NCBI RefSeq assembly: GCF_045037415.1
Contig: NZ_CP173438.1
Length of the DNA stretch: 64,000 nucleotides
Reading direction: 5' to 3' (one strand)
DNA from: Escherichia coli
GTDB taxonomy: Bacteria; Pseudomonadota; Gammaproteobacteria; Enterobacterales; Enterobacteriaceae
This document shows, one piece after another, positions 908 through 2,761 of this stretch (the first letter of the stretch is position 1; each line of letters opens with the position of its first letter). A program made the translations under genes and the position numbers. A model generated the notes under the pieces. It had not been told where the DNA came from, did not search any database, and saw nothing but the letters and a program-made list of their open reading frames with translations.

Positions 908-1789
908 ATGAGTCATAATAAAAAGGAATATGCTAAATTTTTCCGTCGCCCCATTTTTTCATCCTTAGCAAAAGGTAAGGATATTTCGGATTTATTTGGG
1001 AGTTTTGATTCTTACTGCTATGAAACACTGTTTTCAAACAATGATAATAATGAACATGAGATTTCACTAAGGGATTTATTTACATCATTATATGATTTTT
1101 TGCGTCTGAATTATAGAAATGAATATGTTTATAAGACAGCACTTGTCAATAAAATAATATTCGGTAAGCACAGCCCAAAAACAAGTTCGTCGTCCATAGA
1201 GTTACCAATTAAAAACTCTATAGTGGATGTTGCGGTGTTTAATGGTACGTCTACAGCTTACGAGATTAAGACAGAGTATGATTCACCAAAAAGGTTGATT
1301 ACTCAAGCCCCTGATTATTTGGATGTTTTTGATAAAGTGTATATAGTTACACATCCAGAGTATGCAAGTAAATATTGTGCTTTAAATCTCCCCAGAGTGG
1401 GAGTTATGGTTTTGAATAAAAAAGATCAATTGAGTGTCATTAAGGAGGCAGATTCAAATATTGATTATATTAAAAGTGACAGCTTGTTTTCAGTTCTTAG
1501 AAAGGAAGAGTTCTTAGCTATAATAGAAGATTACACTTCAACTAAAATAAATATGCCTAACGGATTGGTTTATGAATATTGTAAAGAGATATTCATGCAG
1601 ATGCCATTAAACATAGCAAATAAATACTTTATCTCTGCTATGAAAAAAAGATGTAACGATAAAGTTTTTTTGGATTATATTTATTCTCTTCCAGCATGTT
1701 TACGTGTTTTAGGTTATGCAACACCATTATCAAGAAAGCAAAAAGAATTCATCATGAATTTGATGGATGTAAAAATTAAAATTTGTTGA
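908..1789 (+). CDS. Hypothetical protein (293 aa) with PD-(D/E)xK nuclease-like motif; cassette gene A
   Basis: Long ORF in AT-rich DNA; motif E98-L-P ... V-D107-V-A-V ... Y-E119-I-K121 (IELPIKNSIVDVAVF...AYEIKTE); no family recognised. Confidence 0.6.
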   Translation: MSHNKKEYAKFFRRPIFSSLAKGKDISDLFGSFDSYCYETLFSNNDNNEHEISLRDLFTSLYDFLRLNYRNEYVYKTALVNKIIFGKHSPKTSSSSIELPIKNSIVDVAVFNGTSTAYEIKTEYDSPKRLITQAPDYLDVFDKVYIVTHPEYASKYCALNLPRVGVMVLNKKDQLSVIKEADSNIDYIKSDSLFSVLRKEEFLAIIEDYTSTKINMPNGLVYEYCKEIFMQMPLNIANKYFISAMKKRCNDKVFLDYIYSLPACLRVLGYATPLSRKQKEFIMNLMDVKIKIC

Positions 1790-1810
1790 TATCCTCAGGA
1801 GTTGTAAGTT

Positions 1811-2761
1811 ATGTATAGCCCATATTTGTATGCGAGAAGTACAGAGTTATTATGCCTTAGGGACCTCGTTGCGAAGGGAGTTAGCCTAAATGGTCTGCTA
1901 CCAATTTTAGAACCAATTAACGTCAATACGAGAAATTTATTAACATGTTTAAATGTTTGGAATTCTGACATAATTGTTATCCTTAATCCTTATCAGGAAG
2001 ATTTTTCTTCACACAATAACGTCTTAACTTTAAATCAAAATTTATCAAGTGTATTAACAAATAAAAATAATATCATCTCTGGATATCTTATTCAGCCCAA
2101 TACAACGATTAATGATATTAATAATTGGTTGAATGCTAACTTAAATAGACGAGTTGCACTTCTATATGATAATCCATCATTATCCAACTCTGATATTCAG
2201 TTGTTGGCGACAAATCAATTGATTAGTTATCATGTTGTTTTAAATAATAAAATGCTTCCTAATCAGTGCGCTCTTCTTCCTTTGTCGAAGTTAATTATTA
2301 TTAGCGATAACTTTAGAAAGTTAGCAAAAAATGCTGATTATAATGGGCCGGAACTTTTCACGCACGCACATCAATTCGTGGGACAAAATTACTTAGGATT
2401 TGGCGATTATACAATTACTGGCCAGGTACTAGATCTTGGAGGTGGTCAACCTTCTGCTGTTGCCGCACATTTGGTGTTCAAGAATTTACAAGCGAATACA
2501 GTTTGGATTCGTCATTTTGTATCAAGCAACACGCAACGAGGAAGTTCAAATGTTACTGCAAAATTTTTAGATGTTTCAGATCAAATTACAAATCTTGTTC
2601 CCCAACATCCAACCCAGTTTGGCAGCAACATTGGTCTTAACTATTATTATTACAATAGTCAACCAACTGTAAGGCATTTCCCTGGGTTGCCAAAAAACAA
2701 ACAGTATCAAATTACTCACCATATTTGTTTCATGCTGGATTTAATAGCAGGTCGTATTTAA
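1811..2761 (+). CDS. Hypothetical protein (316 aa); cassette gene B
   Basis: ORF 22 bp downstream of gene A, same strand and AT-rich composition; N/S/L/Q-rich; no recognisable catalytic motif; 3' end overlaps the integrase 3' end. Confidence 0.6.
   Translation: MYSPYLYARSTELLCLRDLVAKGVSLNGLLPILEPINVNTRNLLTCLNVWNSDIIVILNPYQEDFSSHNNVLTLNQNLSSVLTNKNNIISGYLIQPNTTINDINNWLNANLNRRVALLYDNPSLSNSDIQLLATNQLISYHVVLNNKMLPNQCALLPLSKLIIISDNFRKLAKNADYNGPELFTHAHQFVGQNYLGFGDYTITGQVLDLGGGQPSAVAAHLVFKNLQANTVWIRHFVSSNTQRGSSNVTAKFLDVSDQITNLVPQHPTQFGSNIGLNYYYYNSQPTVRHFPGLPKNKQYQITHHICFMLDLIAGRI

Follow-up and report, generated by a model that had tools for sequence, protein, structure and literature searches.

The opening kilobases of a 64,000-nucleotide stretch of Escherichia coli DNA (contig NZ_CP173438.1, assembly GCF_045037415.1; hereafter the window) raise the question of what is encoded by an AT-rich pair of genes that lies between an Ogr/Delta-like gene and a P4-type integrase gene. 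An earlier note, made from the letters alone, had put this pair forward as an unrecognised and undescribed candidate anti-phage system. Gene A (908..1789, + strand) encodes 293 amino acids and gene B (1811..2761, + strand) encodes 316 amino acids, co-directional and of exactly the sizes that the note had given. The spacer between them (1790..1810, + strand) is 21 nucleotides long rather than 22, and contains an AGGAG ribosome-binding site (Shine-Dalgarno) at 1797-1801, 9 nucleotides before the gene B ATG. Genes A and B form an operon-like unit. The guanine plus cytosine (G+C) content is 30.6% in gene A, 34.0% in gene B and 32.4% in the cassette as a whole, compared with 50.7% for the window and 45.4% for the integrase gene, in agreement with the by-eye estimate of about 30% against about 50%. 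Both proteins pass the NCBIfam cutoffs of families that carry names, sce7726 and sce7725, a pair that the note had been unable to rule out. The family pair and the kind of system are known, and what is new is a variant that lacks the Gop protein of the P4 gop-beta-cII system, not a categorically new system. From homology and from the defence islands in which the pair is found in other species, an anti-phage role would be the most likely function of the cassette.

Gene A matches the NCBIfam model sce7726 (NF033832) with 175.6 bits (E 9.6e-52, curated cutoff 70). The cII protein of P4 passes the same model with 151.4 bits (cutoff 70), and its RefSeq name is 'sce7726 family protein'. Gene A also matches the PADLOC 'cll' model (1.2e-18), its homologues carry the precomputed PF26915 annotation 'Phage_P4_cII', and BLASTP aligned it to P4 cII with 39% identity over 61 amino acids around the active site. 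At the level of sequence, these matches place gene A in the same family as P4 cII. In the sce7726 family alignment, residues D107, E119, K121, D125, R129 and Q133 are invariant and E98 is nearly so, all of them common to P4 cII. The AlphaFold model of gene A is confident (predicted local distance difference test, pLDDT, 93.4), and the predicted fold is PD-(D/E)xK, with both the restriction-endonuclease-like fold and the D...(D/E)xK site by which such nucleases are recognized. In the HHpred table of Rousset et al., cII was matched to an MmcB-like PD-(D/E)xK family at 99.8% (PMC9122126). On account of the invariant residues, the confident model and this link between cII and MmcB, we assign gene A as a PD-(D/E)xK nuclease with an intact active-site signature, and as the predicted effector of the pair. 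The nuclease-like motif noticed from the letters alone corresponds to D107...E119-I-K121. Gene A contains an additional N-terminal helical region of approximately 90 amino acids that is absent from P4 cII. A Pfam-A scan of gene A gave no match, the Pfam release being older than PF26915, and a sequence search of the PDB with both family profiles returned nothing meaningful. In PHROGs, genes A and B each fall in families of unknown function.

Gene B matches the NCBIfam model sce7725 (NF033831) with 242.2 bits (E 1.1e-71, cutoff 60) over profile positions 1-311 of 312. Genes A and B are therefore full members of the two families, adjacent as the pairing of the families implies and with no difference in membership, and RefSeq applies the labels sce7726 and sce7725 to them in hundreds of genomes. 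The families are named without an assigned function. The model of gene B is very confident (pLDDT 95.1, predicted template modelling score, pTM, 0.93) and TIM-barrel-like. A Foldseek search against AFDB50 returned sce7725 family proteins from Proteobacteria, Actinobacteria, Bacteroidota, Firmicutes and Spirochaetes, and an exhaustive profile search gave 1,489 cluster representatives at 50% identity, mostly of about 300-320 amino acids among the 150 listed. In an alignment of 123 diverse members, P35, F168, D199, H235, S238, K297 and H304 are invariant, and E12, E34, N59, D166, N174, Y177 and H220 are nearly invariant. Most of these conserved residues lie at or just after predicted beta-strands. 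Strand ends are the usual place of TIM-barrel active sites, and gene B has both the alternating beta-alpha barrel and the conserved residues at the C-terminal ends of the strands that typify the fold. The model thus makes gene B look like an enzyme or a ligand-binding protein, and we annotate it as a predicted sensor, activator or enzyme. The earlier note had seen no obvious catalytic motif in gene B, which is wrong because a set of invariant and nearly invariant polar residues is present in a confident barrel-like model. Its proposal of an effector-plus-partner pair holds in part: the nuclease in gene A stands, and the partner appears to be an enzyme or ligand binder instead of a motif-less protein. 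The only Pfam-A match of gene B, NAD_synthase at E 0.26, is noise. The strong family matches and the confident folds rule out that genes A and B are chance open reading frames (ORFs) in AT-rich DNA.

We further compared gene B to the Beta protein of P4. The N-termini are alike, with MYSPYLYARSTELLCLR...LLPILEP in gene B and YYPALRTRSAEMTGL...ILPLISL in P4 Beta. Alignment of a 49-sequence sce7725 profile to a 33-sequence Beta profile by hhalign gave 91% (E 1.1e-6) over 246 columns and paired GFGDY with IYGDH. The 123-sequence sce7725 profile gave 93.7% (E 1.9e-7) over the N-terminal 119 columns, and the reversed and column-shuffled Beta profiles used as controls gave no more than 4.7%. Gene B is therefore likely to be a remote homologue of P4 Beta. 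P4 Beta in turn matches the PADLOC model PD-Lambda-2_C (8e-14).

Gene A belongs to the cII family and gene B appears to be a remote homologue of Beta, and for these reasons we consider the cassette to be a relative of the gop-beta-cII cargo, which the earlier note had cited only as a contrast. Cloned from P4, gop-beta-cII protected against lambda and P1 (Rousset 2022, PMC9122126), and a phage accessory gene, orf184, triggers gop-beta-cII, leading to cell death (bioRxiv 10.1101/2023.04.06.535777). The two systems occupy the same integrase-proximal hotspot of P4-like satellites. Gene A and cII both pass the sce7726 model and share the D...ExK core, while gene B and Beta share an N-terminal Y-x-P-x-L-x-x-R-x-x-E...P motif and a G-D motif. 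The cassette differs in having no Gop, a small toxic protein with two transmembrane segments whose gene lies just upstream of beta, in the N-terminal helical region of gene A, and in the failure of gene B to match the Beta models (Pfam PF14350 and PADLOC 'beta'). The arrangement is also distinct: the cassette is co-directional, with the nuclease followed by the barrel, whereas in the canonical form gop and beta are co-directional and cII is convergent. Thus, of the features that define gop-beta-cII, the cassette has the cII-like protein and lacks a Beta-model match, Gop and the canonical gene arrangement. The P4-like order, a small ORF followed by Beta with a convergent PF26915 cII, was found in Pseudomonas aeruginosa, Methylibium and Acinetobacter (L029-L031). 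Since the sce7726/sce7725 order differs from that of these loci and of P4, we distinguish two sister architectures made from the same two protein families, one of them Gop-less. Judged by its protein families, the cassette is a Gop-less, co-directional sister of P4 gop-beta-cII that is related, via Beta, to component C of PD-lambda-2. In the P. aeruginosa locus L029, a HigB-like toxin gene and a helix-turn-helix (HTH) gene (6264-6859) adjoin the canonical small-ORF/Beta/cII locus; they recall the HigB-like and Xre parts of PD-lambda-2 and hint at intermediates between both systems.

PD-lambda-2 contains a Beta-like component C, for which the role would be the same as that proposed here for gene B. 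In that system, component C was needed for defence and dispensable for neutralising the toxic component (Vassallo 2022, PMC9519451). The cassette has neither a HigB-like toxin nor an Xre-peptidase, its effector being a PD-(D/E)xK nuclease, and PADLOC gave no PD-Lambda-2 match for gene A or gene B, which places the cassette outside PD-lambda-2. The likeness to PARIS (AriA/AriB) is positional and architectural only: PARIS is also a two-gene cargo with a nuclease-type effector and a partner, found in the same slot and backbone, while the cassette lacks both an ATPase and a TOPRIM domain, and its protein families are not related to those of PARIS. The proteins of genes A and B are not contained in the supplements of Rousset 2022, the 2026 P2/P4 hotspot preprint or DefensePredictor. 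Table S3 of DefensePredictor holds one 'sce7726' string in columns that could not be interpreted, and this is not a listed tested system. In the 2026 preprint, incomplete and chimeric P4-hotspot systems were tested, including PD-lambda-2 B and C combined with a cII-like gene; the main text and the supplement file that we read give no result for this chimera, and the sce7726/sce7725 pair is not listed.

To place the cassette in its element, we read the context from identical DNA in complete E. coli genomes, among them L002. The element spans approximately 11.0 kb from dsdC to tRNA-Arg(CCT) and is bounded by a 20-bp direct repeat, and of this length only the right-hand 4.1 kb fall inside the window. 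Encoded on the element are an HTH regulator, a hypothetical protein, a 'P2 family phage major capsid protein', an Icd-like protein, two small proteins, a DUF927 primase-like protein, Ogr/Delta, A, B and the integrase. Neither psu nor sid is annotated in the satellite (L002), and psu is not found beside the slot, unlike in canonical P4. Thus, the satellite is not canonical P4. The P4-type tyrosine integrase gene (2741..3964, - strand; RefSeq start 3916) is convergent with gene B, and its product aligns to P4 Int over the full length with 40% identity (E 1e-100). A diverged form of this integrase (80-95% identity) is present in 17 genomes, two of which we examined. In GDSC2BY4G (L006), the backbone and the site are as here, and the slot is filled by one gene of 612 amino acids with Old nuclease as the best PADLOC match. 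In FDAARGOS_1261 (L007), the slot contains an AAA ATPase and a DUF4435 protein, which match AriA and AriB of PARIS best. Positions 1-588 of the window are 89-95% identical to L006 and L007; the similarity ends at 586-588 and resumes at 2768-2800, within the last integrase codons. Because the junctions of the three-element alignment lie at these positions, we define the exchangeable module as approximately 589-2767. About 320 bp of the module are upstream DNA of its own, and all three cargos are approximately 34% G+C. The last 21 nucleotides of int overlap the 3' end of gene B in convergent orientation, and together with the resumption of similarity at 2768-2800 this indicates that cargo exchange rewrites the last few int codons. 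The slot is thus a variable, integrase-adjacent locus that holds known defence systems, as in P4-like hotspots. The cassette, as cargo of this slot in a P4-like satellite, is of horizontal origin. The earlier note had inferred as much from composition and position and had proposed comparing this tRNA-Arg locus across E. coli; the siblings at argW do hold different cargo there.

Within E. coli, the cassette occurs in 421 of 5,426 complete genomes, always as a single chromosomal copy and with no copy below 99% identity. In this species it belongs to the accessory genome and is clonal. That it might be conserved core genome, which the earlier note had named as a finding that would speak against its proposal, is ruled out by this count. 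Many of the listed cassette-bearing strains are sequence type 131 (ST131).

The pairing itself extends well beyond E. coli. In 20 of 21 species-representative loci, from species including Morganella, Pantoea, Tatumella, Pseudomonas, Variovorax, Duganella, Lysobacter, Burkholderia, Acidobacteria, Arthrobacter and Cryobacterium, sce7726 lies directly upstream of sce7725 on the same strand, and the exception is a truncated sce7725. The order and the short spacer between the genes are kept in the loci of other species. Clustering of the neighbouring ORFs of 24 loci gave no third recurrent gene, and only tyrosine integrases recurred (8/24). The pair is also present on plasmids of Shinella, Rhizobium, Moraxella and Ralstonia. 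We scanned the neighbours of sce7726/sce7725 loci in other species with PADLOC. In Rugamonas (L022), LmuA/LmuB of Lamassu lie directly upstream of the pair and RmrA of RosmerTA directly downstream, with ThsB of Thoeris nearby. PDC-S25 followed by LmuB/LmuA stands beside the pair in L023, and KwaB of Kiwa is directly downstream of it in Curvibacter (L011). In Variovorax (L013), the pair has a methyl-directed restriction enzyme and an AbiO/Nhi-like protein nearby, and in Pseudomonas folii (L014) an HNH restriction-like gene.

The explanation that we prefer, and to which we give about an even chance of being correct, is that the cassette acts against phages, with gene A as a latent nuclease effector and gene B as a Beta-like TIM barrel that senses infection and licenses A. 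The nuclease, with its D...ExK site intact, would be held inactive and would cut DNA once activated. The conserved polar pocket of the barrel would detect infection, either as a phage protein or as a small ligand, and gene B would then license or activate gene A, which would make it more than a mere neutraliser of A. By analogy, the outcome would probably be abortive infection, and the cassette would work most like the Beta-cII part of gop-beta-cII.

Natural disruptions of the cassette bear on the alternatives. Most of window positions 1-4200 is present in 420 genomes, and 6 of these have insertion sequence (IS) elements within this region. In THO-015, IS1 splits gene B after approximately 143 codons, while gene A is identical and intact and its upstream DNA is unchanged. 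In FXCREC145, gene A is cut short at its 3' end by IS1, which also parts the intact gene B from its upstream DNA. The remaining four insertions are upstream of gene A or in int. Were the pair a toxin-antitoxin or addiction module, a toxic nuclease A would be neutralised by B (or the reverse) and the satellite or island would be stabilised, with defence at most a side effect. P4 gop/beta has been described in such terms, with Beta as an 'antitoxin' (PMC9122126, PMC9519451), and the cassette, a compact two-gene operon on mobile elements, has the expected format; toxin-antitoxin loci (HipBA, HigB) also lie near some of the homologous loci. We nevertheless consider this explanation unlikely. Both THO-015 and FXCREC145, one genome each, are sequenced viable isolates, which speaks against a strict toxin-antitoxin dependence, the Beta-like PD-lambda-2C is dispensable for toxin neutralisation (PMC9519451), and gene B, at 316 amino acids and with an enzyme-like conserved pocket, would be an atypical antitoxin.

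The same disruption of gene B speaks to a restriction-modification-like arrangement, in which B would be a barrel of the TGT/DpdA type that modifies DNA or a nucleotide and A would restrict DNA that is unmodified or differently modified. The barrel fold and the nuclease of the cassette would suit such a division of labour, but none of the libraries scanned gave a methyltransferase or known modification domain, and the loss of gene B with gene A intact in THO-015 is tolerated, which argues against A attacking self DNA that B must protect. We regard this arrangement as quite improbable. More improbable still is a role outside defence, either in the satellite life cycle, through control of lysogeny or immunity as the historical name 'cII' recalls, or in the repair of host DNA; a link to mitomycin C resistance exists for MmcB-like nucleases. 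Against such a role, the pair is widespread outside satellites, in chromosomal defence islands and plasmids of unrelated phyla, the same satellite backbone functions with PARIS or Old in the slot, and gop, beta and cII are non-essential for P4 (PMC9122126).

Several observations weigh against the anti-phage explanation, or loosen its links. Gene B matches neither Pfam PF14350 Beta_protein nor any PADLOC model, including 'beta' and PD-Lambda-2_C, and BLASTP of gene B against P4 Beta was not significant; by profile alignment, the gene B-Beta link appears remote, with hhalign values of 91-94% and not above 99%. P4 Beta has been described as a suppressor of Gop toxicity (PMC9122126, PMC9519451), and Gop is absent here, so that the role of P4 Beta may not transfer to gene B. 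The searchable literature contains no functional study of, or phage-resistance phenotype for, the two-gene sce7725/sce7726 form, and a defence function therefore rests on homology and context. The cassette is clonal within E. coli, and its persistence there thus says little about selection. Finally, each of the two IS disruptions comes from a single genome, in which compensating changes elsewhere are possible.

The anti-phage explanation can be extended to a wider proposal, which we put forward as possible though doubtful. The Beta-like TIM barrel of sce7725, P4 Beta and PD-lambda-2C might be a widespread infection-sensing enzyme module that is wired to interchangeable effectors, namely a cII-type nuclease, the Gop membrane toxin or a HigB/Xre-peptidase pair, and in the two-gene form it might switch on the nuclease by making, consuming or modifying a small molecule or nucleic acid. 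If true, such a module would be previously unrecognised and would involve new chemistry, and the cassette would represent, reduced to its minimal core, a new class of immune signalling or licensing. The sce7725/sce7726 families, with approximately 1,500 clusters at 50% identity in many phyla, are annotated by name only, and PADLOC recognizes the nuclease alone, as an orphan 'cll'. The pair would represent the Gop-less core common to gop-beta-cII and, through Beta, to PD-lambda-2. This gives a testable hypothesis for all three systems, in which they share a Beta-like barrel as sensor or activator and have effectors that can be swapped. The satellite-borne copy, carried by 421 of 5,426 E. coli genomes with many ST131 among those listed, offers a handy native model and is possibly relevant to phage susceptibility.

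The flanks of the cassette are those of the satellite backbone, and the neighbours named in the earlier note are confirmed by the RefSeq label of the first gene, the similarity of the integrase to P4 Int and the ARAGORN prediction of the tRNA. The 3' part of the Ogr/Delta-like zinc-finger gene occupies 1..228 (+ strand); the 5' edge of the window cuts it, and its start lies approximately 45 nucleotides earlier. The matching gene in L002 is WP_000783295.1, 'ogr/Delta-like zinc finger family protein'. Conserved backbone continues from 229 to 588 and has at its end, before the cargo junction, a G+C-rich hairpin with T-runs (554-581) that is terminator-like on both strands and lies just before the end of similarity at 588. 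This hairpin may act as the terminator of ogr/Delta, and the boundary at which the cargo slot recombines may lie here. The cargo-specific upstream region (589..907, + strand) is not common to the sibling satellites L006 and L007, and presumably holds the promoter or regulatory DNA of the cassette. A promoter scan upstream of gene A gave no convincing sigma-70 site, with counts near the shuffled expectation, and the region has no similarity to the upstream regions of homologous loci. No Gop-like protein, membrane-like or hydrophobic protein or conserved small ORF was found in 229-907. On the far side of the integrase gene, tRNA-Arg(CCT) at the argW position (4077..4151, - strand; ARAGORN and Rfam) is the integration target of the satellite, and it is the sole Rfam match in window 1-5000 (63.4 bits). 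The att core repeat ATGGTGTCCCCTGCAGGAAT (20 bp, 4076..4095) covers the tRNA end; its second copy stands beside dsdC, approximately 11.0 kb away and outside the window. The repeat was identified as the longest exact direct repeat between both element ends in L002.

At the DNA level, the satellite has diverged widely from P4. Window positions 1-4200 have no DNA similarity to P4, and the 19-nucleotide P2/P4 cos sequence GGCGAGGCGGGGAAAGCAC, confirmed at the P4 left end, has no match in the window with up to 3 mismatches allowed. In a blastn comparison of the satellite with P4, the only similarity was a stretch of approximately 420 bp at 71% identity between L002 ~9835-10230 and P4 8285-8707, which covers the cI gene and the DNA just upstream (the cI/epsilon region); the rest is too diverged. 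The backbone protein of 334 amino acids that RefSeq labels 'P2 family phage major capsid protein' is encoded at L002 8671-9675, and this capsid-related gene might specify a capsid-size or hijacking factor. The insertions in 1-4200 (L032-L037) are of the types IS1 (three), ISEc23, ISEcp1 and IS4321, and the region seems to attract IS elements.

A 'sce7725 family protein' has been detected by mass spectrometry in clinical E. coli isolates (PMC8203672), which indicates that the protein is made in uninfected cells. It was more than 4-fold more abundant in aminoglycoside-resistant isolates (PMC8203672); in this correlation, it is most likely a lineage marker and not a resistance factor. Homologues were also found in two small records from outside these genomes. 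A 7.8-kb human-gut 'Bacteriophage sp.' contig (MT837073.1) contains adjacent homologues of genes A and B at 2172-3796, and the 10.5-kb record 'Listeria phage LM 4-14-1' (OR848224.1) contains a gene B homologue at 2192-3082. Both may be other small satellite-like elements with the same cargo.

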